DNA of 64,000 nucleotides, taken from sequence record MK327931.1, one strand, 5' to 3'. Positions 1-64,000 of this stretch are shown in pieces. A program made the translations under genes and the position numbers. How positions within the stretch are numbered: the first letter of the stretch is position 1; each line of letters starts with the position of its first letter. The notes under the pieces were generated by a model. It was not told the DNA's origin, ran no database searches, and saw only the letters and a program-made list of their open reading frames with translations. This DNA comes from Escherichia phage vB_EcoM_G17.

Positions 1-182
1 AGATCAAATTCTTCAGTCCACCTTCTGTGCCCTTTGCTTTCATTGCAGATGATTTTATATTTTACATCTGGTTTAAAAGTTTCAGTACTGTCATCCCATG
101 CACCATAGTCAGTATATTCATCATTTTCATCTAACTCTGCTAGATGCCACATTAATTGTGGTAAAAAGATTTTAGATTTCAT
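1..182 (-). CDS. hypothetical protein, N-terminal part only (gene runs past window start)
   Basis: ATG at 182..180 with GGAG about 9 nt upstream; frame stays open to position 1. Confidence 0.4.
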   Translation of the reverse strand, partial: MKSKIFLPQLMWHLAELDENDEYTDYGAWDDSTETFKPDVKYKIICNESKGHRRWTEEFD

Positions 183-193
183 TTATTTTCTCC

Positions 194-221
194 AAAAAAA
201 AGGACTTGAATACTCAAGTCC
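194..221 (-). terminator. rho-independent terminator-like hairpin after HNH gene
   Basis: 8-bp stem GGACTTGA/TCAAGTCC (202-209 / 214-221) followed on minus strand by a T8 run (A-run 194-201 on plus). Confidence 0.5.
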
Positions 222-234
222 CTATAATATCATA

Positions 235-846
235 TCAATCATGTTTATTCAATTTCTTCTGTTCTTTTTTCAAAGCTTTCATATGACGACCAAACTCTCG
301 AACATGCCATAGATGATCGGTTTCCCATAATTCTTGACGTAACCTACGTTCTTCTAGTAGTTTCGACTTGTCAATGTTATTTTTCTTTTTTTGTACATTA
401 AAGAAATTATTCATATGTTCTTGGAGAAGATTACGACCTTTAACTTTCTCAAGAAACTCATCAACTGTTTCAGTTTTATTCGAACGTAGTTGATTACATC
501 TGGAGCACATAGTATTAAAGTTTGACTCTAAATCAGGTCCACCCTTAGATGCCAGATGATTATGGTCAACTGTCATTAAAACTTCATAAAGACCACATAC
601 AGCATATACATTTAAATGTGGTTTACCATATACTGGATCAGAACATAATGAACGTTCAATGCGTACTTCAGTAGCTTCAATCCCACATGCCACGCATTTT
701 GGATTCTTAACAAAAGTAAGAACTTTTTGTGGGAAATATCGAAAAGTAATACCATTTAAAGTGTAGCGTTTCATCTTAGTACTTCGTTGATTTAATTCGT
801 CAAGAAGTGATAATTTTGTCGTATAGTAAACATGATATTTGTTCAT
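235..846 (-). CDS. HNH-family endonuclease (free-standing, homing-endonuclease-like)
   Basis: Motif VDHNHLASKGGPDLESNFNTMCSRCNQ (D-H-N...N...C..C) plus upstream CxxC pair; start moved to Met16 of track ORF (AAGGAA SD, 1 nt after upstream stop); track start 891 overlaps the upstream gene. Confidence 0.6.
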   Translation of the reverse strand: MNKYHVYYTTKLSLLDELNQRSTKMKRYTLNGITFRYFPQKVLTFVKNPKCVACGIEATEVRIERSLCSDPVYGKPHLNVYAVCGLYEVLMTVDHNHLASKGGPDLESNFNTMCSRCNQLRSNKTETVDEFLEKVKGRNLLQEHMNNFFNVQKKKNNIDKSKLLEERRLRQELWETDHLWHVREFGRHMKALKKEQKKLNKHD

Positions 847-847
847 T

Positions 848-1156
848 TTATTCCTTGATATTGATTTTAATATCTTTACCTTGTAAATCACGAATAGTTT
901 TAATCAATGCGTCGTGTTTTAAAGCACATTCATTGTAGACTGCATCCCAACGAGTAAGTACTTTAAGAATTTCTGCACCATCATAACCTTTAAAACCATT
1001 TTTGTCAATCATAATTTTTTGTGGTAGAGGTGTATCATCATCACATCTTTCTAACAGAATTTCTTGTTTAATTGGTGCGGGGGATTGTAGTTTTACTTGC
1101 TCGGCACACCCACTTATAATTAAAAAAGAAATCATTGGAACTAATAATTTTTTCAT
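848..1156 (-). CDS. outer-membrane lipoprotein, putative o-spanin (Rz1-like)
   Basis: Signal peptide with lipobox IISGC; ATGA overlap with the upstream TM/coiled-coil gene; arrangement like T4 pseT.3/pseT.2 separated spanins. Confidence 0.5.
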   Translation of the reverse strand: MKKLLVPMISFLIISGCAEQVKLQSPAPIKQEILLERCDDDTPLPQKIMIDKNGFKGYDGAEILKVLTRWDAVYNECALKHDALIKTIRDLQGKDIKINIKE

Positions 1157-1527
1157 TTGAATTTATTCCTCGCTGCTTGAGAATTTTGTTTTAGTTCATT
1201 CAGTACTTTTACACCATCTTCATCTAAACATACATTCTTATAAACTTCACGTTCTACAATAAAAGGAACCTTTGTTTCAATAACTTTAGCATTATCTTCC
1301 ATGATTTTTTTAGTTTCAAGGTAATTTTTTGCATTTTCTTGTTGCATTTTATCCAAGGCGGTATCAACTTTTTTAGCTATTTGTTGCTCTATGCTTTGTT
1401 GATATCCACTGTAATAAGTATTAGCTTCCCAACCAGCATAAGCTGAACCGCCAATTAATAATACAAAAGAAATTGGTTTCCAAAATGGAATAAGAATTTT
1501 TGAAACAATTATTTCTAACATACTCAT
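1153..1527 (-). CDS. putative i-spanin (Rz-like), N-terminal TM anchor with charged helical periplasmic region
   Basis: Hydrophobic N-terminal segment (ILIPFWKPISFVLLIGGSAYAGW) then K/E/Q-rich region; immediately precedes lipoprotein gene. Confidence 0.5.
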   Translation of the reverse strand: MSMLEIIVSKILIPFWKPISFVLLIGGSAYAGWEANTYYSGYQQSIEQQIAKKVDTALDKMQQENAKNYLETKKIMEDNAKVIETKVPFIVEREVYKNVCLDEDGVKVLNELKQNSQAARNKFK

Positions 1528-1580
1528 AATAATATCTCCTATAGTTGATGATATTATTTAGAGTATACAATTGTATAGTT

Positions 1581-2000
1581 TTACAACATTTTTTGAATAT
1601 GTTCTACTAGTTCATACAGCTTCGTTTCATTATTCTCGAACTTTTCATCAACTTCAACATTGAATTTTTCTTCTAGTTCCATGACCATTTCAATCCAATC
1701 AAGCCAATCAAAATTGAATTTTTCTTCGACTTCCAATTTAGTAAGATTGAAGTTCGCTGATACCTCATTCTCTGATGTATCACAGTAACGAGTAGTGATG
1801 AATTTGACAATTTCTTTTTCAACATCGTTTAATTCACGAGTTTGATATTCGGGCTGAAGATACCACCATTCTCCCTTATTAATAGATTCCAATTCTTGTT
1901 TGATTTCATGCATTACTTTATAACGGTCAGTACTTTTATCAATAGAATTTACTTCTTGGTTCAATACATGTAGTGCATTTTTAATACGTTCATTTAACAT
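1581..2000 (-). CDS. hypothetical protein with acyl-carrier-protein-like C-terminal motif lacking the phosphopantetheine serine
   Basis: NFDWLDWIEMVMELEEKFNVEVDE resembles ACP helix-II motif (DSLDxVELVMALEEEF) with Ser replaced by Trp. Confidence 0.5.
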   Translation of the reverse strand: MLNERIKNALHVLNQEVNSIDKSTDRYKVMHEIKQELESINKGEWWYLQPEYQTRELNDVEKEIVKFITTRYCDTSENEVSANFNLTKLEVEEKFNFDWLDWIEMVMELEEKFNVEVDEKFENNETKLYELVEHIQKML

Positions 2001-2013
2001 TTTATCACCTTAT

Positions 2014-2043
2014 AAAAAAAGAGAACTCCATATGAAGTTCTCT
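2014..2043 (-). terminator. rho-independent terminator-like hairpin
   Basis: 8-bp stem AGAGAACT/AGTTCTCT with 8-nt loop, followed on minus strand by T7. Confidence 0.5.
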
Positions 2044-2074
2044 GATTATACATAATTACTTTTTCTATGTCAAG

Positions 2075-4864
2075 TTATAAATCACGGAAACGATTTGGTG
2101 TGTTTAAGCGGTACATTGAGTATAATCCCAATCCACGCATAATCTCACCTGCCCAGAAACCAAAAAACATACCATTATCAGTACCTTCTCTAACTGCTGG
2201 ACTCCATGAACCATTCATTGGAGAACCTGGACTTACAATAACATAGTTCTTTTGAAGTTCGAGAACTAAGTTATCAGCGAGTGTTGTTAGACCTTCTATT
2301 TTACATCCAGCCAATCCAGCAGCACAAGCCCCAGCTAACCACAACCCACACATATGACCTGTAAAGTCCCAATCTGGACCTTCAACTGTGCCATCTTTAT
2401 TGAAGATTGTTGGTGAACGACCATCATTATCTTTTTGAAATTGAATTAAAAAGTGAATCCAATTCTCACAAAATTCAACAAGATCTGCTGGTGGTTCAAT
2501 TCCTCTCTCTGCGAGTTCTTGCCATGCTCTGGCAGCCCCAAAGAACGCACGTGGTTCATACCCACTCCATGCTTGATCACCCCAATGTAGCATAGTAAAT
2601 GTATCTGGTTCACCATATTTTAAGTTATCCCAGCGGTTCCAAACATATGCTTGTGCACATGGACCAACAGTACCGAATTGTTGAGTAAACCATGTTTGAG
2701 AATCTTTCATAAAGCTTAACATGTTGCCTAAACGTGTGTTATCAACTGGTTGGTCTTTAAAACAATATATCACAGGATATTGATAACCTGGATACGGTAA
2801 ACCACGCCATCCTGAATACTGGTTCGCATACGGGTCAGTGATGTTAGAAAATGGTATTGTTCCTGGTGTGTAATGCAATGAGTTTAACAAATAATCCTTG
2901 ATTACACAATCCCCTAACTGTGCAGTATATGGTGATTCACCTGCAATTGTTATTGAAAATGTCATAGTATAGTCATCACCGTCAGCATCCGTGTATAATT
3001 CTGGAATGTCATTAATACAATACCAATCAATTATTGCAGCAACACCATCTACTGGGGTTGTATCAGGTAAAATAGTAATATCTTCTAGTTCACTATAAAC
3101 TGGTGCATCTGGTCTTGGGTCAGAACTTGGATGATTTGGCTGATACCCAGATAAACGTAATGTATCGGAACTTAGTGTGATTGTAGTCCATTCCCCGTGT
3201 GTTGCAGGAATCATCCACCACCATCTCCAACCATTATCATCTACAATTCTTATATTGTAATCATCTTCATATGAACGATAGGTAAAAGATTTAACTTCAG
3301 ACTTATTTGTTGCTAATAGCCAAAATCCAATAACAGCACCATCATCTTCACCACAAACTAACTGATTAATGGTATCGCGGCGTGTAACTAATATATCAGT
3401 ACTATATATCATTTCGGACGTAGCTGCACCATAAGGAACAACAATTCTACTATCAGCAATTATATAAGGGGAACCATCTGCTTTCTTTTCTCTAACAAAT
3501 GCACTTAAAGGTGTTAATGAATGTGTGATATTTTGGTCTTTACTTTCCGGTAAGCCACAACGATAACGAACAACATCATGGTCATTTTTTGTTTTTGACA
3601 ATTCCAGTACTGGTTTAAATGATAACGGCTTACCATCATCACATACACCACCATAGTCTACAAGTAATTTAGAATCAGCATTGACCCTGAACCAAATAGC
3701 TTGTTGTTCCATAGTACTTTGTGCACTTTGGTCTTGCCTGATAGTAATATATCCTAGAGAATTTCTACCAAACTTAGCAATAGCATCACTAGGATAAAAA
3801 TATTCATAGGAAATACCATCAGTGAATGGTGTGGTTACAATTGTACTTTGTCTGAAAAATTTATCTCTGGAGTCAATATCACCATAAGCATAACACGTTA
3901 GTAGTGAACATTTCCAACCCAAATAATGTTTTCTTTCTTTTGTTATTTTATATAACAAATAAGAAGCATCACTAAACCATAATTCTGCATCTGATGCGTT
4001 ATCAGCAAATTCCAAATCAATTGGAACATGAAGAGGGCGGTTGTGTTGCATTTCATTTCGTTGAATTATCACACCACCATATTCTACTGGTTGACGATTT
4101 GCAAAATTTAATTTATATACACCATTAATTGTTGTATTCTTTAATTGAACAGTTCCTTTTTCCGATTCGTCAAAACCTTCTGCTAAAATATTACCATCCC
4201 AGTCGATTTTTCTACCCATGAAATCGATAATCCAGTCAACATCATATTGTTCACCTGGTGTATCCCAATCAACACTACCATCTGGTAATAATGCTTTTAC
4301 TGACGCATTTATTTGGTTCCATGCTAAAGCACCTTTGAATGCAAATGTTACTTTATCCAAGAACTGACCATAATAAGGTGCACCATGTGGTATTTTACAT
4401 TGTCCATTTGTAAATGTAAATTCTACACCCTTGAAACCACCATGTGTAGGCCATCCATCATCAGCTAAAGGCCAGTTAGCCAATATAGGTTCTTTGGCAT
4501 TAACTATCCAGTTACATTGTAGTGGTGTAGGTGGATCTGGTAATTCACGTCCAGCATAAAAGTACTGATGATATGCGTCCCAATACCACTTTGCCTTATC
4601 TAAAAACATTGGATCATTTGTTGCCAGATACGCATAAATGTATCCTAAAATTAATAGACTTTGACCTTCTGTTGTCCCGTCACCGTTTGGTTGACCTTCC
4701 ATTGCAGAATAGTTAATAAAATGACGGTTGTTCGCCAAAACACCCTGATTATTCACCACATAATGTTGTACTGTTGGATCTATAGTATCACCAGTATTTC
4801 TTTCAATAAACTTATGATGCCCATAAAGAAGTTGTACTATATTATCAATATTATTGTTTAACAT
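2075..4864 (-). CDS. large Trp-rich protein (929 aa), possibly a virion-associated glycan-binding or glycan-degrading protein (tailspike/depolymerase-like)
   Basis: Uninterrupted 2.8 kb ORF adjacent to tail-fibre module; many aromatic/Trp motifs (WYWDAY, DGWPTHGG, HWGDQAWSGYEP) typical of carbohydrate-active domains; function inferred only. Confidence 0.7.
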   Translation of the reverse strand: MLNNNIDNIVQLLYGHHKFIERNTGDTIDPTVQHYVVNNQGVLANNRHFINYSAMEGQPNGDGTTEGQSLLILGYIYAYLATNDPMFLDKAKWYWDAYHQYFYAGRELPDPPTPLQCNWIVNAKEPILANWPLADDGWPTHGGFKGVEFTFTNGQCKIPHGAPYYGQFLDKVTFAFKGALAWNQINASVKALLPDGSVDWDTPGEQYDVDWIIDFMGRKIDWDGNILAEGFDESEKGTVQLKNTTINGVYKLNFANRQPVEYGGVIIQRNEMQHNRPLHVPIDLEFADNASDAELWFSDASYLLYKITKERKHYLGWKCSLLTCYAYGDIDSRDKFFRQSTIVTTPFTDGISYEYFYPSDAIAKFGRNSLGYITIRQDQSAQSTMEQQAIWFRVNADSKLLVDYGGVCDDGKPLSFKPVLELSKTKNDHDVVRYRCGLPESKDQNITHSLTPLSAFVREKKADGSPYIIADSRIVVPYGAATSEMIYSTDILVTRRDTINQLVCGEDDGAVIGFWLLATNKSEVKSFTYRSYEDDYNIRIVDDNGWRWWWMIPATHGEWTTITLSSDTLRLSGYQPNHPSSDPRPDAPVYSELEDITILPDTTPVDGVAAIIDWYCINDIPELYTDADGDDYTMTFSITIAGESPYTAQLGDCVIKDYLLNSLHYTPGTIPFSNITDPYANQYSGWRGLPYPGYQYPVIYCFKDQPVDNTRLGNMLSFMKDSQTWFTQQFGTVGPCAQAYVWNRWDNLKYGEPDTFTMLHWGDQAWSGYEPRAFFGAARAWQELAERGIEPPADLVEFCENWIHFLIQFQKDNDGRSPTIFNKDGTVEGPDWDFTGHMCGLWLAGACAAGLAGCKIEGLTTLADNLVLELQKNYVIVSPGSPMNGSWSPAVREGTDNGMFFGFWAGEIMRGLGLYSMYRLNTPNRFRDL

Positions 4865-4865
4865 G

Positions 4866-5402
4866 TCATACTCCTGCTCTAATCAATGCACCGTACCATG
4901 TAACTCCTTTATCGTATGTTTCTAATGAAATAATATCTTTTTCACCAATTTCATAAGAAAGAACAACTGGTCTATTATATGACCATTTAACATTAGATCC
5001 CCAATTAACGAGGTTAGACCCTGTTTGCTGAGTTAATAGGATAGTAATTGAATAAACTTCAGTAGGAGCAGCACCAATAGCAATAGTGGTATTTCTGTCA
5101 GATAAATTAATATTAAAAACTGTATTACCTGATAGGGGATTAATTAAAATATTATTAGAACTCAATACATTATATAATTTGTTACTAGCACTATCATACA
5201 ATGTTACCCATTCTGTTTCATGATTCTCATTAGTAGCTTTAGCTTTTATTTTTACATTATTTTCGGAAGAAGTCATTCCAGTCCAGCCAGAAATAATAAA
5301 AGAACTGTTTTTATTTGTTCCAAATGATGCAATTACTGAATCACTAAGAGAACTATCTTCACCGTCAATAGATCCGAGTACTGACAATGTTAAAACCATC
5401 AT
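4866..5402 (-). CDS. hypothetical beta-rich structural-type protein (possibly the 3' part of a frameshifted gene)
   Basis: ORF with Ser/Asn/Thr-rich composition; starts ATGATG inside the end of ORF 5365..5565 in another frame. Confidence 0.5.
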   Translation of the reverse strand: MMVLTLSVLGSIDGEDSSLSDSVIASFGTNKNSSFIISGWTGMTSSENNVKIKAKATNENHETEWVTLYDSASNKLYNVLSSNNILINPLSGNTVFNINLSDRNTTIAIGAAPTEVYSITILLTQQTGSNLVNWGSNVKWSYNRPVVLSYEIGEKDIISLETYDKGVTWYGALIRAGV

Positions 5403-5565
5403 TTTTAATGTCTACACCAGTTGCACCTGAAAAATTATTTTGAAATTTAATAACTCCGGTAGTGTGGATATCTGTGAAAATTTGTTGTGCCATACTTAAT
5501 CCTTGCGTTAATTTATATTGAGTATTTATTGAGTATAATGGCATTTTTAGTACCATTATACTCAT
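5365..5565 (-). CDS. hypothetical protein (possibly the 5' part of a frameshifted gene continuing in 4866..5402)
   Basis: 66-aa ORF whose last 38 nt overlap the start of the next ORF; overlap contains an A-rich AAAAATGATGG stretch. Confidence 0.4.
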   Translation of the reverse strand: MSIMVLKMPLYSINTQYKLTQGLSMAQQIFTDIHTTGVIKFQNNFSGATGVDIKNDGFNIVSTRIY

Positions 5566-5570
5566 GTATG

Positions 5571-6803
5571 TTACTTATACCATTGCATTTCTCTGATATC
5601 AATGATAATTTTTGATGCTAATTTAATGTTTGGTTTTTTGGGAAGTACTGATTTCTTATATAGAACATCACGAATGTATTGTACTTTATCATCGAAATAT
5701 TCTAATACTTCTTCATACTTCCACTTACCATTACGAATATCCATCAACATTTGTGCATCAGGTCGTTTAACTTGAATAATTCCACTCTGTAAAGCTTCTT
5801 CTGCACTATTCAAAAGTCTAATTGTGTGCATAGCATGTTTACAATCGTATCCGTGTTGTGATTCTAAAACAGCACGTTTGGCATTACGATTTTCTTTCCA
5901 TTTATGATAACTTTTCCTATTCTCACTATTCTCCTGATATTCTTTTTCGTTAAATTTTACAATTAGTTCTGGTTTGGTTTTCAACTCTTCAGTACTACGT
6001 TCTTTTGAAAAATAACGCAATGAACCATCATGGTTAATAGTGCTTTCATTAGGATTCTTAACAATCGCAAAAATGTTTTCTCCGTAATGAATTAGTTCAT
6101 AACCATTATTAAAATTCAATAAATTGAAATCACGATCAAGAATTTTTTCAGTAGTGTAGTTATGCACTAATCTTACGAAATGATATTGCTTTAATGGATT
6201 TTTCGAAACTAACTGCAATGATGTATCACGCATATATTTTTCAAAATCAATCTTTTTAGCATTAAATGGATGTAAGTTGGATGTATCTAAACGTTCAACA
6301 AGATACTGTGGGAATGAATCATACATCCACGCAAGAACCTCATCGACAGGGTGTTCTTCTAAAATCTCATTTAATCGTTTTTCAGCAATACGCTCTTTAT
6401 CCATCCAACCGTGATGATTTGTCATACGCTTAATCTGATTATATGCATATCCAGTGTATGAAAATGCAATCTTGGAACTAAGAAGTTTTTGGTTAAATGA
6501 ACGAAGATAGTCATAAATTTCAGTACTTTCCACAATGTGTTCAGGTTCAACCCAAAGTGATTCAAGAATATTAGGGTTAGCTTCAGTGTATAATTTTAAA
6601 TACTGATTCAACTCATAGAATTTAGTATCTTCTTCGCTTTTGTCAGCTACCTCTTTGACCTTATAGAAGGGTGTAAGAATAAATTCTTTATTAGCAAGAA
6701 AAATACCACGATAATCAGTATCACTTTCCGGTGTACTGGTTCCGTAGGCTTGTGACCCAGCCAAGTGTTTCACTATTGTTTGTTCAATATATTGGTTATT
6801 CAT
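5571..6803 (-). CDS. DNA polymerase beta-superfamily nucleotidyltransferase (predicted)
   Basis: N-terminal GSQAYGTSTPESDTDYRG matches the hG[GS]...DxD nucleotidyltransferase signature. Confidence 0.55.
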   Translation of the reverse strand: MNNQYIEQTIVKHLAGSQAYGTSTPESDTDYRGIFLANKEFILTPFYKVKEVADKSEEDTKFYELNQYLKLYTEANPNILESLWVEPEHIVESTEIYDYLRSFNQKLLSSKIAFSYTGYAYNQIKRMTNHHGWMDKERIAEKRLNEILEEHPVDEVLAWMYDSFPQYLVERLDTSNLHPFNAKKIDFEKYMRDTSLQLVSKNPLKQYHFVRLVHNYTTEKILDRDFNLLNFNNGYELIHYGENIFAIVKNPNESTINHDGSLRYFSKERSTEELKTKPELIVKFNEKEYQENSENRKSYHKWKENRNAKRAVLESQHGYDCKHAMHTIRLLNSAEEALQSGIIQVKRPDAQMLMDIRNGKWKYEEVLEYFDDKVQYIRDVLYKKSVLPKKPNIKLASKIIIDIREMQWYK

Positions 6804-7201
6804 AGATAAATTGTTAACTCCTTTAAGAAACCATTATAATAACGATTAAAGTCATGTTCTAATGTTTTATAATCATCAAAACTAAAACCTAAATTGATAA
6901 TTGTATCTTCTTGAAAGAAAGTTTCTTCATTCATACATTCAATAGGTTCGTAATTAATTCCACCTTTGAAAACTTTTGTAAAAAACATTCCATCATTATT
7001 AATTTCAACATACATAAAATTATTTTCTGGGTCACGAGGACAGACGATATTCAGTGAACTATTTCCACTTGTATTGTACTCATAAGAAATTATATCAAAA
7101 GAATCAATACCATAACACTTAGATTTTTCTTTATCGCCAAATACTTTTCTATCTGTACTCATATTGCGTATAGTGCTATAGATATCATCAACTGTAGTCA
7201 T
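6800..7201 (-). CDS. hypothetical protein
   Basis: ORF co-oriented with and overlapping flanking genes by 4 nt. Confidence 0.5.
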   Translation of the reverse strand: MTTVDDIYSTIRNMSTDRKVFGDKEKSKCYGIDSFDIISYEYNTSGNSSLNIVCPRDPENNFMYVEINNDGMFFTKVFKGGINYEPIECMNEETFFQEDTIINLGFSFDDYKTLEHDFNRYYNGFLKELTIYL

Positions 7202-7203
7202 AG

Positions 7204-7713
7204 TTAACCACCATACTTTGACTTGTATGTTTCAAGTGATAAAGATATACGATTTTGCTTTTTAATTCTTTCATCAATATCCTTTGAATTCTTCACACTT
7301 CGGTATACGTCAGCTAATAAATTATAATCTTCTTTATTTGAGCTATGCTGTGTCCAACCTATGTCTGTTTTAATACGAACATTTGCTTTATTTGACGAGT
7401 AAAAGAAACTGAAACCATTTGACCCATCAAAAATATCAAAAGTATCTACCCAATCACCATAAGGAAAACTCATCGGGACTGACTCGTGGTCGATTGTGAT
7501 ATCCGATAAATTTTTTGAACAGTACTTCGCAAAGTGATAAACAATTGGATCACATTTAGATAATTCATATTTGTATTCAATGATAGTTTTTCTATTAGCA
7601 TCATTGATAGCATATTCTTTCATCAATGGGCTTTTTTTGATGATAAGAGTCCACAGAAACGATTCTAATCCGGTTTCATCAACTTTTTGTTTCTTTTTGA
7701 AAAATGAAATCAT
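7204..7713 (-). CDS. hypothetical protein, member of a 3-gene tandem paralog set
   Basis: Shares motif KSPxxK..xxDxxRKxxIExKYxLSK with 7710..8231 and 8238..8804. Confidence 0.55.
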   Translation of the reverse strand: MISFFKKKQKVDETGLESFLWTLIIKKSPLMKEYAINDANRKTIIEYKYELSKCDPIVYHFAKYCSKNLSDITIDHESVPMSFPYGDWVDTFDIFDGSNGFSFFYSSNKANVRIKTDIGWTQHSSNKEDYNLLADVYRSVKNSKDIDERIKKQNRISLSLETYKSKYGG

Positions 7714-8231
7714 TTATATAAACCCTTAATTTTCTGTCTATTATGTATATCATTTTGCTGGATTTTCAATTTAGTAAGGTTGTTTCTTACACCTTCAACT
7801 CCACGCATTATTTGTAACATAATTAGTGATTCGTCATATGTTAGTACATTGCTATTATTATCGATATATACTTTCACTCCACTTTCAAGATAATCATTTT
7901 CTTTGGAGTTAAAGTTTCTAATAGCAAACTTAACGCCATTTGATGTATCACTGAAAACATATCGTTCCGCACCGTAGAATGTTTTTCCACGAAATAAACC
8001 GCCGTCTTCCCACTTCCAACGACTAGATTCATAATCATTAACGTAATCAATGATTAAAGAAAGTAAAGGGTGTTTGCTCAATTTATATTTTGCATCTAAC
8101 AGGATACGTCTATCATTATCTGTGGTGATAATATCCTTTAGTGAGTAGCTTTTAGATATAATTTTAAAGATAATTTCATGCCAAATTAAAGTACTGTTTT
8201 GTTTTCCAACTGATCCAAAAAACATATCCAT
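7710..8231 (-). CDS. hypothetical protein, tandem paralog
   Basis: Paralog motif KSYSLKDIITTDNDRRILLDAKYKLSK; 4-nt overlap with neighbour. Confidence 0.55.
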   Translation of the reverse strand: MDMFFGSVGKQNSTLIWHEIIFKIISKSYSLKDIITTDNDRRILLDAKYKLSKHPLLSLIIDYVNDYESSRWKWEDGGLFRGKTFYGAERYVFSDTSNGVKFAIRNFNSKENDYLESGVKVYIDNNSNVLTYDESLIMLQIMRGVEGVRNNLTKLKIQQNDIHNRQKIKGLYK

Positions 8232-8871: not shown

Positions 8872-11601
8872 TTATTTCCAACGTGTACCTGGACCTGATG
8901 GTACACCAGTACTGGCAGGTATCGCTGAACCACGTTTCGTTGTACTTGGACGATATGTCAAAAAACGAGTTACTTTTTCTGTATCAATTGAAGTTATTCC
9001 TGAAGTTCCAGTAACTATCTTACCAATGTAAGTGCTAGTTAAAGATTCATCAATTGTTTCAGTACTAATAACATATGACGCTTTCTTAGTATTCCTGTTC
9101 ATTTGTATATACAAATAGAACGTAGTATTAGCTGGGTTACTTTTTACAGTACTTAAATCAACACTTTGTATAGGTAGTCTGTCGAAAATTCCACCTAAAA
9201 ACACCGGAACTTCACGTGTAAAGTACACTGAGAATCCTTGTGCAACGTCTTGTGATACTACCACAATCTTTTCTTTAACGCTACCATTTCCACTAATTAA
9301 ACCATCCATTTCAGCAGATGTTGTACCAAAAACGCTGAATACAGATTTGGTTTGATAGTCAGAATCTTGAAAATTGTAATATCCAAAACCAACACCAGGA
9401 ATAACACCATGTTGATATGCTGCACCAAGTTGGATGTAACTAGATGATAAAAAACGATTTGATGTTATGACACCATCTACTGTTTTAGCTATCATCATCT
9501 TAAATTGTGCATTACCTGGTTGTGAAAATTGATGAACAGCATCAACACCAATGTAACCAAATCCTGAATATTTTGCAACTGTTAGACCAGTACAACGTTT
9601 CATATATGCTTCAGTAATAATTCCTGTAACAGAACTAAGTGTCTCATATCTAGTACTTACCAATGTAGCTGAAGTTATGTTAGATCCAGATAATACAACA
9701 TCAACTTCGGCATAGATTGCATAACCTTGGTTATTGTTAAGATTATATGCTGAAACTACTGCAATGGATTTAGAAAAAGTATTATCAGGTACATAATATA
9801 ATACAATTTGTCCAGATAGTGTACCAACAATGCCAGAGTTTCCTAGATTAGCAAAAATATCTTGTTTTAATGATTCTAATACCGTTGGTTCTATTGTATA
9901 TGTTTCATCAAATTCTAAAGTATCTGGGTTTAATAATCCACCACTTGTTTTATATACACCTTCAATGAATGATGTTCCATAACATCTAACACTACCATCG
10001 GTATCAACAAGAGAAATCATAGCAGTGTATGTAAAATCATCACCTATTTGTTTACGATTAGATTGTGGTGCAAAACCATTTAATGTAGTATTATTTTGAA
10101 CTGAGTTATATTGATATGTTGGTTGTGAGCCTATTTCAGAAAAAACAGTATTATTATAATTATATGTTACATCATCATACGTACCAGAACATGCTAATAA
10201 TATTTTTCTATTATCGATGAAACGTACACCTAATAGGTTTGCACCAACAGCACTACCAAAAACTGGTAAAACGTTTGCATTTATAACGTTACTTGCGGAT
10301 CTAGTACTAGCAACCCATGAATCAAACGGTGTACCACTAACCTTATATCGTTGTAGACCATAAAATTCAGTTGAACTCCATCTAAATTTAGATGCAAATA
10401 CTAAACCATCTTTGGTTTGACATAAACCACCTGCGTTTCCTAATACACCAGCAGCAGTTGTCCCAGTAAAGTTGACCATATTGATTTCAAATGGGTTAGA
10501 AACTTGAAATCCATTATCATATGAAACTGTAGCAGGAGCACGAGCAGAACCATCTAGTGACATAGATTTTGAGTTTATATTATAAACAAAACTGATACCA
10601 GTACCATACACTGTTGAAATATATAAAGGTGTAACCATTCTATGGGTTGGGTATAAAGTTACACGTATTTTGGATAAATCAGTACTAACGTTTGCTTGTA
10701 TATTAAAGTCTGTATAATCCGAAAATTCTACACGTGAGACTGGTGATGTAACTTCGAATAATGAATCCGAGCTAGTACCAACACTATATAATCTATCAAA
10801 CACTCTTATGTTATTAGATGCAGAATAACTTGTATTTCGAACAGTTTGCCCTGATAATCCAGTAACTTTTGTTAATGATGCCATTGAGCTTGCTTTCACA
10901 TCACTTAGCTCTACTGTATAAATTGAAAGTGCTAATCCTAAATTAGAAACACTTTTATCTTTACACCAAATATATACTTTTGTTCCAACAATATGAGTAT
11001 ATATAGGCATATCATTACCAAAAGAAGTACTTGGTACTTTAGCATGAATATGTGATACTTCGTTGAATGTACCATTAGTTATAGTAAAAATATAATTATC
11101 TTCTGTACTTAAACATCCAAGCATTTCATAACCATTAGAGCCAATAAAATACTTAATATTCTCTGTACTACTCATAATTGAAGGTTTATACATTGAATTG
11201 GTTGAAATAACACTTTCTTGTGAAATCATGGTTATATTTCTGATTTCTCGTATAAATGAATAATAAAAACCTTTAGTACTACCATTGGTTCCGCTACGCA
11301 GAACAACGGCGGTTCCATCATCTTCAATAATTGTTGGCTGAACTACTTGGTCACTTGACATAGGTGTAGCACCTTCATACGACCCACTTACGTTTAATGG
11401 CAAGTAATCCATTTCTCCTACACGTGATATAGGCAACATATCTAAAATACTTTGAACTTCTGAACGCTTATATATTGGATATTGAACAATTCCAGTATTG
11501 GCATTCGGTGAGGTTCCATTAAAAGTACGCATAGCGTACCTTTGTCCAATTGCCAAGTTCCCAAGGATCTCGGCACTTCCTATAATTCGTTTTGATGACA
11601 T
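8872..11601 (-). CDS. tail fibre / receptor-binding protein, paralog 1
   Basis: About 910 aa, Ser/Thr/Gly/Asn-rich; N-terminus (PISxxGxxxYLPxxVSG) and C-terminal ~70 aa (VxRFxTYRPSxTxxGSxxPxSTGxPSxxGT) shared with 12217..14913; start set at Met31 of track ORF (AAGGA SD, 16 nt after upstream stop). Confidence 0.7.
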   Translation of the reverse strand: MSSKRIIGSAEILGNLAIGQRYAMRTFNGTSPNANTGIVQYPIYKRSEVQSILDMLPISRVGEMDYLPLNVSGSYEGATPMSSDQVVQPTIIEDDGTAVVLRSGTNGSTKGFYYSFIREIRNITMISQESVISTNSMYKPSIMSSTENIKYFIGSNGYEMLGCLSTEDNYIFTITNGTFNEVSHIHAKVPSTSFGNDMPIYTHIVGTKVYIWCKDKSVSNLGLALSIYTVELSDVKASSMASLTKVTGLSGQTVRNTSYSASNNIRVFDRLYSVGTSSDSLFEVTSPVSRVEFSDYTDFNIQANVSTDLSKIRVTLYPTHRMVTPLYISTVYGTGISFVYNINSKSMSLDGSARAPATVSYDNGFQVSNPFEINMVNFTGTTAAGVLGNAGGLCQTKDGLVFASKFRWSSTEFYGLQRYKVSGTPFDSWVASTRSASNVINANVLPVFGSAVGANLLGVRFIDNRKILLACSGTYDDVTYNYNNTVFSEIGSQPTYQYNSVQNNTTLNGFAPQSNRKQIGDDFTYTAMISLVDTDGSVRCYGTSFIEGVYKTSGGLLNPDTLEFDETYTIEPTVLESLKQDIFANLGNSGIVGTLSGQIVLYYVPDNTFSKSIAVVSAYNLNNNQGYAIYAEVDVVLSGSNITSATLVSTRYETLSSVTGIITEAYMKRCTGLTVAKYSGFGYIGVDAVHQFSQPGNAQFKMMIAKTVDGVITSNRFLSSSYIQLGAAYQHGVIPGVGFGYYNFQDSDYQTKSVFSVFGTTSAEMDGLISGNGSVKEKIVVVSQDVAQGFSVYFTREVPVFLGGIFDRLPIQSVDLSTVKSNPANTTFYLYIQMNRNTKKASYVISTETIDESLTSTYIGKIVTGTSGITSIDTEKVTRFLTYRPSTTKRGSAIPASTGVPSGPGTRWK

Positions 11602-11617
11602 CTTTCTTTTCCTTAAT

Positions 11618-12205: not shown

Positions 12206-12216
12206 TATGTAATCCT

Positions 12217-14913: not shown

Positions 14914-14947
14914 TATATATCCCTTATAAATTAGATATTAGTTAATG

Positions 14948-14955
14948 TATTTATA
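14948..14955 (-). promoter_or_regulatory. T4-type late-promoter-like TATAAATA element upstream of the tail-fibre operon
   Basis: Exact TATAAATA on coding strand about 35 nt upstream of the start at 14913, just after the nrdG terminator; only clear copy seen in the window. Confidence 0.4.
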
Positions 14956-14960
14956 TACAT

Positions 14961-14986
14961 AACAAAAAAGCACCCAATGGGTGCTT
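14961..14986 (-). terminator. rho-independent terminator after nrdG
   Basis: Stem AAGCACCCA/TGGGTGCTT (14968-14986) followed on minus strand by a T-rich run. Confidence 0.55.
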
Positions 14987-14989
14987 ATG

Positions 14990-53688: not shown

Positions 53689-54206
53689 AAATTCTTCATC
53701 ACCAATCCGAGAGATTTAAGATAATTAATTTTAGCAGTGGTTAAGTACTTATCCAGTACTATCAGACACGAAGGAAATGGTGCTGAATCTGTTTTCTTAT
53801 CGGGTTCTTCTGGTATACCAAATCGTAATCTTCCCTTAATAAAACAAATACAATCACATATTTTAGCAGCATAATCCTGAAAAGCAATTGTGTCGGTTCT
53901 TGAGGGTACAAGAATAACTACAGTTGCCCCGTTATTATATGCATCTACTGCTTTAGATAACCAAGTTTTCAAATCACTGTATGGTGGATTCAACCAAACT
54001 ATATTATTTCCCCAATCCTGTGATAGTGAATCATCTTCTGGAGTGAAAAAATTATCACACAATGCAGTCTCATCAACACAAGCAGCATCAAGTGTAAATC
54101 CCCATAACTCATCCAAATCTTCAAAGAAATCTTTGGGAGTTGTCCAGTTATCTTTTCCAGTACTGAAATGTACTGAATGTTTTTTCGAAGCATCCTTCTT
54201 CGACAT
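53685..54206 (-). CDS. DNA N6-adenine methyltransferase (phage Dam-like family)
   Basis: Catalytic NPPYS motif with WTTP, LDAA and TVVILVPSRTDT context. Confidence 0.7.
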   Translation of the reverse strand: MSKKDASKKHSVHFSTGKDNWTTPKDFFEDLDELWGFTLDAACVDETALCDNFFTPEDDSLSQDWGNNIVWLNPPYSDLKTWLSKAVDAYNNGATVVILVPSRTDTIAFQDYAAKICDCICFIKGRLRFGIPEEPDKKTDSAPFPSCLIVLDKYLTTAKINYLKSLGLVMKNL

Positions 54207-54843: not shown

Positions 54844-55384
54844 GTCTAATTCTACACAAGTACTATTTTCTTTTAATTAATATTGACGGGGTTTGCTTGA
54901 GCATATTTCATCCCCCCGCAGGGGAAAGAACAAAAAAATTTGACGCTGGTGGCCTTCACATAGTTCATATCACGAATTCTCTTACGAGACGAAAGCGGGT
55001 TGCTCTGTTTCTCTCTATCGCGGTTCTTGTAGCAACGGTCGTCGGTCTTAAACATCCCGACACATAATACAAATACCATATGACCAGTACTTGTATTTGA
55101 TTTCACAAAATTTGGACGCAACTATATTGTATAATTCCGACCGCATATTTCTTATGAAATCTCCCTTAGATAATTGGTAAGGTGCGATCCTTATATGTCT
55201 ATCGAGGAACTCTCTTTATCCTATTGGAGTTCTTTATACAGCCGCATTGCCGTGAGTGGTTCAAACTATGCCATCATCTAACGGGTTTCATCTGCTGTTC
55301 GTACTGAAAGGACTACTCATCTACCCTCTACATTTTCGAGTGGATTAGGCTTTTAATCATTTCCTTATGGGAACCTTTCAGGAT

Positions 55385-55420
55385 TAAAAAAAGGTGACTA
55401 ACATATTATGTTGTCACCTT
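55385..55420 (-). terminator. rho-independent terminator
   Basis: Long stem AAGGTGAC(t)AACAT/ATGTTGTCACCTT followed on minus strand by T7. Confidence 0.65.
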
Positions 55421-55448
55421 ATATTATATCATTAACTTATCATTTGTC

Positions 55449-56303
55449 TCAGTTATATTCGGTTTTTTCTGTGAAATTTGTTAGTATATCAACACTAAAA
55501 CTTCGAATAACCTCAATCCTGCTTGGCATGAAACGATGTTTATTTTTAATATACAACTCATCATCTTCAATAAAAGACGTAAAAATAAATGTCATATCTT
55601 CACGTGGAATTTGTAAAATATCACACATTTCATTTGCCGATGCTACTGGTGAATCGTTGTAGTACTGAGAGTATGCACTAGATTGGCGACCGATTATAAT
55701 AGAATTTCTGATTAGAAAATTACTACAGTACTGAAAATCTTTGTAGTACTTTTCAATAATGTAAGGCATAAGTGCTTCTTTCACGTCTTCATAACCATTA
55801 GTACTATCAATTGCTATACAGTAATCTTCACGTTCTTTTTTCTCATGATGGTAATCATAAACATACTCAAAGAATGAATTTTTATTTAATGAATCATTTA
55901 AACCAACTGACCCACTATAGTATGATTTTCTATCATTCATTCGATCATCTGGGCATGATGCATACATAGAAGTGTCATGTGATGATGTACCAATATAAAT
56001 TTTCTTAGTAATATGATTATACGCTATGTAATCATAATCTTGAACTCCAGTCAGCATTAACTGGAACATTAAATCATCAGGAACATCAATTAACGGGTAC
56101 TCAAACTTCGAATATCTACTGCGGCAGAAGTTCTTTTCAAATGCTCGGTATGCGATAAAATCTTTTAGATTTTTACAAGATTCATGTTCATGAGCACTAC
56201 TGCTACGTACATTGACATTAGTCGATGTGCAATATCCATCCGAATCTTCGGTGAAGTTACCAGCATAATCCTTATTGTAGTCAACGATTAGATAAAGTTT
56301 CAT
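55449..56303 (-). CDS. hypothetical protein
   Basis: 284-aa ORF. Confidence 0.55.
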   Translation of the reverse strand: MKLYLIVDYNKDYAGNFTEDSDGYCTSTNVNVRSSSAHEHESCKNLKDFIAYRAFEKNFCRSRYSKFEYPLIDVPDDLMFQLMLTGVQDYDYIAYNHITKKIYIGTSSHDTSMYASCPDDRMNDRKSYYSGSVGLNDSLNKNSFFEYVYDYHHEKKEREDYCIAIDSTNGYEDVKEALMPYIIEKYYKDFQYCSNFLIRNSIIIGRQSSAYSQYYNDSPVASANEMCDILQIPREDMTFIFTSFIEDDELYIKNKHRFMPSRIEVIRSFSVDILTNFTEKTEYN

Positions 56304-61282: not shown

Positions 61283-61867
61283 CTATTTCAGTACTTTAGT
61301 CAATGCTTTCACAGCGGTTTCGAGTTGAGCATAGTCGTTAATTGTAAGGTAATGAATACCATGTGCCTTCATTTCAGCATCTATTTTACTATATAAATCA
61401 AACATGTCAAGGATATGATTGTATGCATATGAAGTATTTGAAACACACAATTCTTGGAACAAACGTTCTTCCAAGTCATTCACAACTTCTCCATGAATGT
61501 CAAGTACTACACCATCTTTGTAAGTGTAGTACTCTTCACTCCACTCTTCAGAAAGTCGGAACAGTAACGGATTCCCGCCGAACACTTCCATGTCATAGGA
61601 ATTTATCTCACTAAGTAGTGTTTCACCTGGTTCTGGTGTGAAGTCAAAATATGCGAGTGTTGTACCATCATAGTCCTTGAGTGATATACCAGTATGATTT
61701 AAGGTTACTTCACCATAATTATTATTCTTGAACTTGATTTTGATATTAATCTCAATGTATTTTATTGTCTCATCATCACTGAAATTGTAATCAACTTTAT
61801 ACTTTTTCCAAAGAAGTTTGATATCTTTGAAGTACTTTAATTTACTTTCAATTTCTTTAAAGTCCAT
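61283..61867 (-). CDS. hypothetical protein
   Basis: 194-aa ORF. Confidence 0.5.
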   Translation of the reverse strand: MDFKEIESKLKYFKDIKLLWKKYKVDYNFSDDETIKYIEINIKIKFKNNNYGEVTLNHTGISLKDYDGTTLAYFDFTPEPGETLLSEINSYDMEVFGGNPLLFRLSEEWSEEYYTYKDGVVLDIHGEVVNDLEERLFQELCVSNTSYAYNHILDMFDLYSKIDAEMKAHGIHYLTINDYAQLETAVKALTKVLK

Positions 61868-62459
61868 CTGGAACCACCATTTCTTGAATGTGCTTACATT
61901 TTATATTTGCCATATTGGTATGTAATATAATGCTGTGTTTACGCAATGATTTTACTTTGTAGCACTCATTGAGTACTGAAATAATTCCCCATAACTCTTC
62001 TACACTAATAGTGATAGGTTCACTTGTACTCAGTTGCATCAGTGCTGCTTGAACATCATCTTTGTTATTAATAGTGAACTGGATTCCTCTTTTGAGAATT
62101 TTAGTTTTTGGATTGTACTCAGCTAATACATCACCTTCTGGATAACCCTCATGAAGTAATAATGTTGTTTCAAAATCACCGCAGTTGAAGTTAATTTCAT
62201 CATAATCAGGTACACAAATGTTCCCTTCCCCGTACTCATTAGGTTCAGATTCTAGTGTTAAAATACGCTGAGTCTCATTGCTCAGGATGATAGAATCATT
62301 CCAGTACTGGGTAGTGAATGCTCTACGTTTCTTTTGAAAGCACATACTCGACATTGAACCATACTTCTTGTATATGGACTTCTTGAACTCAATAGCAGCA
62401 GGAGCCACCTTGATAACTTCACGAATTAAGTCAATAGCTTCTTGATAACTTTTTCTCAT
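61857..62459 (-). CDS. hypothetical protein
   Basis: 200-aa ORF. Confidence 0.5.
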   Translation of the reverse strand: MRKSYQEAIDLIREVIKVAPAAIEFKKSIYKKYGSMSSMCFQKKRRAFTTQYWNDSIILSNETQRILTLESEPNEYGEGNICVPDYDEINFNCGDFETTLLLHEGYPEGDVLAEYNPKTKILKRGIQFTINNKDDVQAALMQLSTSEPITISVEELWGIISVLNECYKVKSLRKHSIILHTNMANIKCKHIQEMVVPDGL

Positions 62460-63007
62460 TTATCGTATCCATATAAAATATGATCTAGTGTACTTTGTAC
62501 TTCTTCATGAAAGAATGAAGGGTAAACTTGTATCAATTTATCTTTAAGTTCAAGGGAATGGCATAGTTCTAATGTTTTGTAACAATCCTCGTACTGTGCC
62601 AGATCATGTAATGTACTTAACTGAAAATGTTGTTCTTCGGAGTACAATAAATCATAAACCATATTATCGGATAAAAGATTAGATTTGATTGAAGGATCAA
62701 GTACTGTCTGGTGGTGACCAACCCAAAAGATAGCTTTTGAGTTAATGTTATTACAACCCCATCCTTTCCCCATCTTTTGGTGAATAGCAAATACACAGGA
62801 ATCATACAAATTAATGCTCAGACGTTCTTCGTCTGCATGGATAGTTACACCATCAATAGATAGTGTATATTTGAAATCCATAGCCCCCTCACTTCGTGCA
62901 CGAGAACTAAAGACCAGATATCGATGAATTATGGTATTGATTTTATCTGTCCATCCATCAACACATTTGGATGCACATAATGTAAAAAGATCATGATTGT
63001 AGTTCAT
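62456..63007 (-). CDS. hypothetical protein, FQxSTLxD-motif paralog family
   Basis: C-terminal HFQLSTLHDLAQYED. Confidence 0.5.
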   Translation of the reverse strand: MNYNHDLFTLCASKCVDGWTDKINTIIHRYLVFSSRARSEGAMDFKYTLSIDGVTIHADEERLSINLYDSCVFAIHQKMGKGWGCNNINSKAIFWVGHHQTVLDPSIKSNLLSDNMVYDLLYSEEQHFQLSTLHDLAQYEDCYKTLELCHSLELKDKLIQVYPSFFHEEVQSTLDHILYGYDK

Positions 63008-63068
63008 AAAATTCTCCTTTAGGACAATGTATCATACAAAAATACCAGAGTCAACCCCTGGTACGAAT

Positions 63069-63650
63069 TTAATCCATCATAAGTGGGATAATTGCCCATA
63101 TCTTTTTCATAATCATATCTTCAGTAAAAACAAATGTTTTAGGAGCAGTATATGATATTGACACACCAAATGGAAGTTTGATTGCATCATCAATTATATT
63201 ATGAATATCAAACCATGTTTTAACATAATCATACGGTGGAAGTTCATGAATTGTACTTAACTGAAAGTAATTCTCTTCACCAAAATCACTATATTCAATT
63301 TCACAAATTTTAGTGAATTGATGATTCCATTTAGATATAATACTATTTTTATTATTGTACATAGTAGTTCTATGCATAAAACCATTTTTGCTAGTATGAT
63401 TTGATATTACGTTTTCTTCAATGTCAGTATCTATTTTAAAATTCATATCAAAGTTGTAGTACGGACTTGACGATTCTTTGAATTTTAAATGTAAATTGCG
63501 ATTGTTATTAATTTCAATTTCAATACAAAACACATCTGAATCAAAACGATTAAACTTGTAATCGTTATCTTCCGGTAGATTCTGTATTTTTTTCATAATA
63601 CTAAGCATAGGGTGTACTACACTTTTAATAAAATCATTTGTTATTTTCAT
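63069..63650 (-). CDS. hypothetical protein, FQxSTLxD-motif paralog family
   Basis: C-terminal YFQLSTIHELPPYDY. Confidence 0.5.
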   Translation of the reverse strand: MKITNDFIKSVVHPMLSIMKKIQNLPEDNDYKFNRFDSDVFCIEIEINNNRNLHLKFKESSSPYYNFDMNFKIDTDIEENVISNHTSKNGFMHRTTMYNNKNSIISKWNHQFTKICEIEYSDFGEENYFQLSTIHELPPYDYVKTWFDIHNIIDDAIKLPFGVSISYTAPKTFVFTEDMIMKKIWAIIPLMMD

Positions 63651-63966
63651 AGTATTCCTTTAGAACTTTATATGATTCAACAATACTATCTTGTGTATAA
63701 TTTGAACTATATACAACAGCACTTGTTTTAGTTGACCATAGATATGACATAAAGGTTATAACACTACTACATGGACTTAATGTATTGTTTTGAAATTCAA
63801 TTTCTTCAATGTTATCAGTACTGGTATAGATGAATTGGAAAGTACCCATTGATTTATTGGACAGCGATACTATAGTAGAATCCGTACCAGGACTATACAT
63901 GAATGTCTCATTACTAATTGAACTATCATTAGTATATGATGGTTTGGGAATATAAATCAAACGCAT
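63634..63966 (-). CDS. hypothetical protein
   Basis: 110-aa ORF. Confidence 0.45.
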   Translation of the reverse strand: MRLIYIPKPSYTNDSSISNETFMYSPGTDSTIVSLSNKSMGTFQFIYTSTDNIEEIEFQNNTLSPCSSVITFMSYLWSTKTSAVVYSSNYTQDSIVESYKVLKEYYENNK

Positions 63967-64000
63967 GATATCGCGTTCAAGACCTGACTTATTACTTTCC

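Follow-up and report, generated by a model that had tools for sequence, protein, structure and literature searches.

The palindrome AGTACT is multiplied across the genomes of Sharanji and related jumbo phages: a possible density-dependent recognition site

We analysed 64,000 nt of Escherichia phage vB_EcoM_G17 (MK327931.1; this whole stretch is called the window hereafter) and found the palindromic hexamer AGTACT in large excess, both there and throughout the genome of Escherichia phage Sharanji, to which the window corresponds. Throughout the genome of Sharanji and those of its relatives (Asteriusvirus, RaK2, GAP32/CBB and Munch), some 900 copies, none of them indispensable by itself, are maintained at a fairly even density of one per 0.3-0.4 kb. 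The force that maintains them is weak at each site and acts on DNA, yet it shifts codon choice and dipeptide content. Tentatively, and with a confidence slightly short of an even call, we read AGTACT from these comparisons as a weakly selected, density-dependent recognition site for a DNA-acting protein still to be found.

Sequences and null models

The window is an exact match to positions 271,631-335,630 of Sharanji (OR545507.1), an Asteriusvirus jumbo phage of 350,079 bp and 34% G+C. It carries 115 complete annotated genes, all on the minus strand except one, and 94% of it is coding. For genome-wide counts, the whole Sharanji record was joined from nine pieces. Expected numbers of AGTACT in the window were obtained with a mononucleotide model, with order-1 and order-2 Markov models and with 100 dinucleotide-preserving shuffles. 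As a coding null, synonymous codons were permuted inside each of the 115 coding sequences (CDS), a procedure which keeps the proteins and the codon usage of each gene. Counts in relatives were made on sampled stretches. The samples of phages PA5oct and T5 were positions 100001-140000 and 30001-70000, respectively, and the E. coli comparison was a single sampled 50-kb stretch of the chromosome.

AGTACT is over-represented in coding and intergenic DNA

The 64,000 bases contain 180 AGTACT, about one per 356 bp, where the mononucleotide, order-1 and order-2 models predict 21.5, 17.3 and 31.5, respectively. The dinucleotide-preserving shuffles gave 17.47±4.11 copies with a maximum of 31.

1-64000, no strand: 180 dispersed AGTACT, of which 43 extend to CAGTACTG; T is preferred at -4/-3, Y at -2 and C at -1, where G is disfavoured, and the same is mirrored on the other side

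For the 43 copies of CAGTACTG, 0.88±0.91 were expected. YCAGTACTGR was found 26 times, AGTACTGAA 25 times and TTCAGTACT 23 times. The full hexamer is needed for the excess, as most one-mismatch variants occur near expectation; the exceptions are TGTACT (56 versus 26 expected), AGAACT (42 versus 15) and AGTGCT (24 versus 9). On the plus strand of the window, TGTACT (56) is twice as frequent as AGTACA (28), and the bias of about 2:1 between these two words genome-wide tracks gene orientation, AGTACA being favoured on the sense strand.

Within CDS, 170 sites were observed compared to 41.0±5.5 (maximum 55) after shuffling of synonymous codons, and they are split 83/32/55 between the reading frames. 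Density is 2.8/kb in coding and 2.9/kb in intergenic DNA. Codon or dipeptide usage is therefore ruled out as the cause. The Ser-Thr dipeptide is spelled AGTACT in 83 of 136 cases (61%), whereas codon usage predicts 19.8 (15%). Moreover, the dipeptides given by the three frames are themselves inflated about 1.5-fold (Ser-Thr 136 versus 86, Val-Leu 152 versus 101 and Gln-Tyr 61 versus 36), with no inflation of their reversed forms. Since the dipeptides themselves exceed expectation, it is the DNA word which bends the proteins and not the proteins which bend the word.

These counts can be compared with a preliminary description of the window, which had estimated 150-160 copies where base composition would give 20-25. 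The excess was borne out and the exact number is higher. Its statements that coding and intergenic sites are alike, and that codon usage is not at the origin of the excess, agree with the densities and with the codon shuffle, no dipeptide or codon preference accounting for the 170 sites. It had also described most GTAC cores as flanked by A and T. Among the 417 GTAC of the window, A indeed precedes 241 and T follows 262, but both flanks are present in only 180 (43%).

Several features of the translation apparatus touch on the codons concerned. Sharanji has genes for a tRNA-Ser whose anticodon, ACT, is unusual and reads AGT (45470-45561 of one of the Sharanji pieces), and for a tRNA-Thr(TGT) (43711-43784 of the same piece). 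AGT is the most used Ser codon in the window (34%), and a protein annotated as tRNA-specific adenosine deaminase is encoded at 30726-31205 of the window. Together, these features may be a translational adaptation to the motif, which is read as Ser-Thr in frame 0.

AGTACT is the one palindrome multiplied in a purged genome

Genome-wide, Sharanji contains 903 AGTACT compared to 100.5 expected (about 9-fold). This is the sole over-represented hexamer palindrome, the next one, AACGTT, reaching 1.56-fold. In contrast, 22 of the 64 palindromic hexamers are wholly absent from the 350-kb genome, including CCATGG (47 expected), TGGCCA (43), GCATGC (39), CTGCAG (36) and GGTACC (32), as well as GGATCC. 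The tetranucleotide GCGC is also missing genome-wide, where 179 copies were expected. The phage purges restriction-type palindromes to an extreme while multiplying one. In the window alone, 27 of the 64 palindromic hexamers are absent (summed expectation 89). GATC occurs at 0.6-fold of expectation.

AGTACT density varies along the genome, from 1-2/kb in regions of structural and replication genes to 3-4/kb in regions of small genes. The E. coli stretch contained 3 AGTACT and 342 GCGC (6.8/kb), AGTACT being about 40-fold denser in the phage than in this sample.

Density and not position is maintained among relatives

AGTACT was enriched in phages of other genera, namely Salmonella phage Munch (61 versus 11.8 expected), Cronobacter phage GAP32 (82 versus 12.0), Klebsiella phage RaK2 (95 versus 8.5), Pectobacterium phage CBB (266 copies in 50 kb) and XbC2, recorded on Xanthomonas (66 copies in 31 kb). 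Across these five phages the enrichment was put at 6- to 11-fold. GCGC was absent from each of these samples. PA5oct, a more distant Pseudomonas relative, showed a single AGTACT where 11.3 were expected and a normal GCGC content. In T5, an AT-rich coliphage, 4 copies were found versus 11.8 expected and GCGC is present. Because T5 is depleted, a general bias imposed by the host on AT-rich coliphages can be ruled out. The depletion in PA5oct and T5 makes the enrichment in RaK2-like phages more striking, and it suggests that a restriction pressure specific for AGTACT probably exists in nature.

Individual sites are conserved above background and turn over. In an alignment of three genera (66-69% identity), 26-41% of AGTACT were conserved in position compared to 15-17% for all hexamers, and most replacements were unrelated words. 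Between Sharanji and PBECO4 (97.7% identity), 94.1% of AGTACT were unchanged compared to 89.3% of all hexamers (P about 0.02-0.04), with 8 gains and 7 losses of sites; the commonest change was the interchange AGTACT<->TGTACT. Positional conservation above background together with gains balancing losses points to selection of the density type, with turnover. As judged from these alignments, the sites would be numerous, weakly selected and individually dispensable, with density kept and not position.

Flanks are symmetric and spacing is more regular than random

The extended consensus is T-T-Y-C-AGTACT-G-R-A-A and the flank preference shows two-fold symmetry. At -1, C is present in 45.7% and G in 7.7% of the sites; Y is preferred at -2; T reaches 42% at -3/-4 and G 15.7% at -3, with mirrored values on the other side. 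Information fades past ±4 bp. The copies are dispersed, lie in unique contexts and are not part of a longer repeat. The preferred base at -1 is C in Asteriusvirus and RaK2 and A in CBB and in the two prophages described below, while G is disfavoured at -1 and T favoured at -3/-4 in every lineage sampled.

The coefficient of variation (CV) of AGTACT spacing in the window is 0.763, compared to 0.99±0.07 for random placement (P<0.0002), and is below that of all 73 frequent control hexamers (median 1.02). Very short and very long gaps are both under-represented. The CV was 0.76-0.90 in each 50-kb segment of Sharanji.

Regular spacing, maintenance despite turnover and occurrence in several genera together point to a functional site. 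This is what had been proposed initially from the window, where the enrichment was seen as the opposite of restriction-site avoidance; the excess indeed stands beside an extreme loss of other palindromes, and the same count extends it to the rest of the genome and to related genera.

The terminal repeat is densest in AGTACT and adjoins two AGTACT-free zones

AGTACT density peaks outside the window, at Sharanji 15.8-36.4 kb (132 copies versus 6 expected, 6.4/kb). Sharanji has a direct terminal repeat of 20,668 bp (PMC11895373), and Asteriusvirus repeats are about 21 kb long, with ends confirmed via restriction digests (PMC13070987). In an alignment, vB_Ec-M-J has its right physical end at Sharanji 15,778, which maps the 15.8-36.4 kb block as the terminal repeat. 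The outer end of this repeat coincides with a flip of GC skew at about 37 kb.

Two stretches free of AGTACT, 10,531-15,909 and 370-8,092 (13 kb together), adjoin this repeat. At the mean genome density, the longer gap would occur by chance with a probability of 2e-9. The 2.4-kb centre between the two zones carries 15 AGTACT sites. In zone 370-8,092, the 69 GTAC are preceded on the plus strand by T in 59 cases and by A in none, and TGTACT (AGTACA on the minus strand) is found 41 times versus 3.7 expected. In zone 10,531-15,909, A follows 14 of the 16 GTAC, and AGTACA is found 11 times versus 1.4 expected. The word 5'-AGTACA-3' is thus carried by the minus strand in 370-8,092 and by the plus strand in 10,531-15,909, both zones being transcribed the same way. 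Variant sites of the larger zone are found in each of the three frames and show the TTC flank signature on one side only. PBECO4 and 121Q display the identical pattern, with zero AGTACT<->TGTACT interchange in the larger zone among the three genomes. This rules out a sequencing artefact, the Sharanji sequence being of Illumina origin. It would seem from these zones that a single strand-specific half is able to occur by itself, and that the two stretches exclude the full palindrome. In the centre that separates them we detected no decisive origin signature, just a change of AT skew near 9-10 kb.

We also examined Chi, the host signal acting on RecBCD. The E. coli Chi sequence (GCTGGTGG) occurs 29 times in Sharanji, compared to 2.5 (order-1) or 9 (order-3) expected. 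In the interval 17140-35853 of Sharanji, nine copies within the terminal repeat all point the same way, and an opposite copy is found at 35853, about 0.6 kb from the outer end of the repeat. With this layout, RecBCD would meet facing Chi sites whichever physical end it enters. The first 50 kb of CBB carry 9 co-oriented Chi. Since the phage already uses the host's own anti-RecBCD signal, true Chi being in excess and oriented within its terminal repeat, it is unlikely that AGTACT takes the place of Chi. The window has two Chi copies on each strand.

An independent enriched lineage among prophages

IMG/VR was scanned for three AGTACT at short distances. Besides RaK2-like contigs, the matches comprised many Ser/Thr-repeat genes, 7-bp tandem repeats and a single genuine second case. 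Most of those outside the RaK2-like group belonged to the Ser/Thr-repeat genes or 7-bp tandem repeats, which are a different phenomenon. The second case, in Pantoea sp. RIT-PI-b (NZ_LGIS01000014.1, 536503-558413), is a lambda-like prophage whose terminase and portal are of the lambda type. It has a relative, 69% identical, in Mangrovibacter plantisponsor. Both prophages are of 36-41% G+C, in genera of about 50-57% G+C. In 22 kb, each carries 52 AGTACT where 7 were expected; every site has a unique context, and GCGC is missing.

A single protein is detectably common to Sharanji and the Pantoea prophage (phmmer E=2e-14, prophage stretch 7101-7691). It is encoded in the window:

15432-15764, minus strand: gp461, a DUF4326-domain protein (phrog_464), between nrdG and nrdD; the gene holds no AGTACT

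The association of gp461 with the enrichment is weak because no DUF4326 protein was found in the Mangrovibacter locus.

Candidate enzymes encoded in the phage

As the preliminary description had pointed out, the window encodes an HNH endonuclease and a Dam-like methyltransferase:

235-846, minus strand: gp445, HNH endonuclease (Pfam HNH, E=1e-5; PHROG HNH endonuclease)
53685-54206, minus strand: gp542, Dam-like N6-adenine methyltransferase (Pfam PF05869, E=7e-32)

The proposed link of the motif to either enzyme was not supported. Relatives of gp445 at E<1e-8 were found in Escherichia, Klebsiella, Salmonella and Yersinia phages and in one Erwinia phage; at this threshold there were none in phages of Cronobacter, Pectobacterium and Serratia (BF), nor in any other Erwinia phage. 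The GAP32/CBB/Serratia group is equally enriched, as is XbC2, which speaks against gp445 as the reader of the motif. For gp542, no link to AGTACT was shown, and its family is widespread, with about 1,800 phage records for PF05869; these methyltransferases are typically GATC-specific. Searches of solved structures with gp445 and gp542 returned no informative relative, and Pfam and PHROG scans of gp541, gp543, gp544 and gp548, near the methyltransferase gene, returned no function.

Elsewhere in its genome, Sharanji encodes a C5 methyltransferase (PF00145) which corresponds to the one of RaK2. RaK2 DNA has been reported to be methylated, and its cytosine methylation to be CpG (PMC3622015). AGTACT contains no CpG, which speaks against this enzyme as the reader. 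No ScaI-like enzyme pair was recognisable in Sharanji. Virion DNA of fEgEco12 was cut as predicted with ten enzymes (PMC13070987), which implies that the DNA is not globally modified and carries no double-strand breaks at AGTACT.

A reading as a density-dependent recognition site

If AGTACT is a recognition site as we tentatively propose, the reader protein would meet its sites at short, regular intervals on phage DNA, and the sites would in effect mark this DNA. A more specific version, possible if doubtful, is that a strand-specific unit has been doubled into the palindrome and serves a strand-directed step of replication or recombination. The working unit would be approximately 5'-YCAGTAC-3', and the palindrome would present it on both strands at one place. 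The step could be priming, transient nicking or the loading of a motor or clamp. It would arrive from either direction over most of the genome and in a fixed direction beside the terminal repeat. The oriented variants, the spacing and the peak in the repeat fit a strand-specific unit better than they fit methylation protection or an architectural protein.

Among replication proteins, gp322 is a primase of the T4 gp61 type (phrog_47) whose gene adjoins that of a DnaB-like helicase. T4 primase recognises 5'-GTT/GCT and T7 primase 5'-GTC. Primases of the T4 gp61/T7 gp4 type are zinc-finger enzymes that move along the lagging-strand template and read there a trinucleotide GTN whose 3' base is cryptic. 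AGTAC contains GTA; this is a resemblance only.

Several observations weigh against the proposed reading. No reader protein was identified among the examined candidates, and the sequence gives no sign of nicking, priming or binding. Trinucleotide-specific primases need no enriched hexamer. Conservation per site is only modestly above background, so that a mutational drive is possible. Regular spacing is weak or absent in Munch, in GAP32 and in both prophages. The AGTACT-free zones exist only in Asteriusvirus, CBB, of another genus, having none after its annotated repeat. Within the zones, the base following GTAC is specifically A and not just any base other than T, which would not be expected from a simple half-site model. 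Finally, in the 22 kb seen, the prophages have no detectable replication or recombination gene in common with Sharanji. Enrichment without common machinery speaks for either a factor still to be found or convergence.

Alternative explanations

The first alternative is a structural, genome-organising protein, binding as a symmetric dimer without strand-specific chemistry, which would condense or spool the 350-kb chromosome or separate it from the host nucleoid. Symmetric flanks, regular spacing and the very large density contrast between phage and host would all be expected, and many virion proteins are of unknown function. Sharanji does not build a phage nucleus, and the filamented cell is filled with phage DNA (PMC11895373), which also suits such a protein. 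Nevertheless, a symmetric protein hardly accounts for AGTACT-free zones whose variants are strictly polar, small lambda-like prophages are equally enriched without a giant genome to organise, and no candidate DNA-binding protein was found. We consider this explanation unlikely.

Distinctly unlikely, in our view, is that AGTACT is the target of a phage or host DNA methyltransferase, either as an epigenetic mark or as a protection against ScaI-type restriction which spared it from the purge. Protection accounts for tolerance, that is a ratio near 1, and not for a 9-fold excess, regular spacing or polar variants. PF05869 enzymes are widespread and directed in general at GATC, the 22 kb of the Pantoea prophage, though enriched, yielded no methyltransferase, and the CpG methylation of RaK2 does not concern a word devoid of CpG. 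What speaks for methylation is the classic type II appearance of a 6-bp palindrome with symmetric flanks, its tolerance where 22 of 64 hexamer palindromes were removed, the presence of the Dam-like and C5 methyltransferases and the reported methylation of RaK2 DNA (PMC3622015). The depletion in PA5oct and T5 makes a restriction specific for AGTACT plausible.

A scheme of two words, one for self and one for the host, has in our estimate a similarly small chance of being right. AGTACT would be a positive 'self' tag whose reader guides the machinery of replication, recombination or packaging onto phage DNA, and GCGC would have been purged so that a GCGC-directed nuclease spares the phage. Such a nuclease could destroy the host chromosome, with its 6.8 GCGC per kb in E. 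coli, without touching phage DNA. The scheme would operate in RaK2-like jumbo phages and, independently, in some low-GC temperate phages of Enterobacterales. If true, these phages would rely on sequence where others use base modification or a phage nucleus.

AGTACT could also be generated by a sequence-specific bias of mutation or repair (very-short-patch-like repair or biased gene conversion), the sites themselves being functionless. This would agree with the weak purifying selection per site, the high turnover, the indiscriminate presence in all frames and in non-coding DNA and the fact that close relatives differ most often by the single step AGTACT<->TGTACT. Yet a blind drive would not space sites more regularly than random, one-mismatch neighbours are not depleted, and two zones of 13 kb have zero AGTACT with 41 and 11 oriented variants. 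T5, which grows on the same host, is depleted and the drive would thus have to come from a phage gene; the annotation of the Sharanji record, in which no search was aimed at Vsr, lists no Vsr-like gene. We hold such a bias to be still less probable than the preceding explanations.

That the word acts in RNA, with AGUACU as a cleavage or binding site for an endoribonuclease timing mRNA decay, like RegB at GGAG in T4, is very improbable. The density gradient, from about 6/kb in the early region of the terminal repeat through 3-4/kb in small genes to 1-2/kb in structural and replication genes, is compatible with it, and a palindrome reads alike whichever strand is transcribed. However, the flanks are two-fold symmetric though nearly all window genes lie on one strand, intergenic density equals coding density, and the two variant zones are opposite in polarity yet transcribed in the same direction.

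The last alternative is that the sites recruit or titrate SlmA, replicating phage DNA thereby blocking FtsZ and causing filamentation. The SlmA-binding sequence GTGAGTACTCAC has an AGTACT core (PMC3020112), and Sharanji infection causes filamentation without an identified division inhibitor (PMC11895373). All sampled enriched genomes come from phages or prophages of Enterobacterales except XbC2 (Xanthomonas), and PA5oct (Pseudomonas) is not enriched. SlmA has a strong requirement for G1 and T2 and a preference for a purine at position 3; its half-sites, GTRAGY|RCTYAC, are further characterised by A4 and G5. Sharanji contains no full SlmA site; GT.AG..CT.AC occurs 3 times versus about 3.5 by a rough composition estimate, and GT at -3/-2 is no commoner than flank frequencies predict. 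With G1/T2 not enriched, G depleted to 7.7% at -1 and C preferred there (46%), the flanks largely refute that AGTACT are SlmA sites, and the idea is scarcely tenable.

Comparison with known systems

HIP1 (GCGATCGC) is a highly iterated palindrome of cyanobacterial genomes, present in coding DNA in all frames and in non-coding DNA. In logic and anatomy it is the closest known system; next come Chi, uptake sequences and T5 with its GCGC nick sites. AGTACT departs from each of them in word, symmetry, host or the purge of other palindromes that goes with it. Both HIP1 and AGTACT are short perfect palindromes found roughly once per 0.4-1 kb, tens of times above expectation, in all coding frames and in non-coding DNA. 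Both are kept across related genomes with turnover, and to our knowledge no function is agreed for HIP1 either. In contrast to HIP1, AGTACT is an AT-rich word of 6-8 bp with a GTAC core, it is found in phages and not in cellular chromosomes, it coexists with the loss of many other palindromes and it has local zones of oriented one-base variants. A cognate methyltransferase has been proposed for HIP1, whereas none of the Sharanji methyltransferases (PF05869 and PF00145) is assigned to AGTACT.

Chi and the FtsK-orienting polar sequences (KOPS) likewise act through many individually dispensable copies, in a density-dependent manner, and mark the cell's own DNA. The variant zones of Sharanji resemble them in being oriented, with a polarity that switches around a centre. 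However, Chi is asymmetric and read on one strand by RecBCD, whereas AGTACT is palindromic over 96% of the genome and has no Chi-like orientation; only AGTACA in 370-8092 and 10531-15909 is oriented. The uptake signal sequences (USS) of Pasteurellaceae and DNA uptake sequences (DUS) of Neisseriaceae are also short, hugely over-represented and present in genes at an amino-acid cost under weak selection or drive, but they are asymmetric, 9-12 bp long and serve the natural transformation of cells. We know of no process comparable to DNA uptake for a lytic phage.

The single-strand interruptions of T5 (consensus 5'-NPu pGCGCN-3', annotated in NC_005859) combine a short palindromic word with a strand-specific nick. 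T5 also has long direct terminal repeats, and the oriented Sharanji variants would fit nicking of one strand. Unlike AGTACT, the T5 nick sites are few and not enriched, and their word, GCGC, is wholly absent from Sharanji. The targets of ScaI (AGTACT) and of RsaI/CviQI (GTAC) are identical to the word or its core, and 6-bp palindromes are typical of type II enzymes, but restriction targets are avoided or neutral in phages whereas AGTACT is 9-fold enriched. The SlmA site shares the 6-bp core, an Enterobacterales host and a fitting filamentation, with outer G-T-R not enriched in the phage.

Full-text literature searches combining AGTACT with phage terms returned no earlier report of the enrichment, which is not mentioned in the papers on Sharanji, CBB, RaK2 and fEgEco12. 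If these searches are representative, AGTACT would be the first density-type word described for a bacterial virus. DNA words that work through density (Chi, uptake sequences, KOPS and HIP1) are few and each revealed a DNA machinery. Here, an oligonucleotide bait (TTCAGTACTGAA, with TTCAGTACAnnn for comparison) is available for fishing out the reader protein, and the AGTACT-free zones are natural 'mutants' in which an oriented half-variant stands in for the palindrome. The large motif contrast with host DNA is a further experimental handle. For phages that are candidates for therapy or engineering, recoding heedless of about 900 selected sites may cripple them.

Local clusters of AGTACT in the window

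Three local arrangements of sites were noted:

20245-20268, no strand: two intergenic AGTACT at 18 bp from each other, immediately upstream of where gp469 starts (20226)
35162-35402, no strand: the densest cluster of the window, five AGTACT in 241 bp, inside the metallophosphoesterase gene gp499
55661-55805, no strand: four AGTACT in 145 bp inside gp544, which has no Pfam family and belongs to a PHROG of unknown function

On the gene strand, the pair upstream of gp469 reads CAGTACTG-N10-CAGTACTT, equally TACTG-N10-CAGTA. This resembles the outer arms of the LexA SOS box, TACTG-(TA)5-CAGTA, without the inner T and A of the LexA CTGT/ACAG. The sites of the gp499 cluster are at 35162, 35178, 35250, 35307 and 35397. 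Between gp543 and gp544, 600 bp of the window (54844-55448) are without an annotated gene and hold only short open reading frames on either strand; two AGTACT are located in this stretch, at 54859 and 55086.

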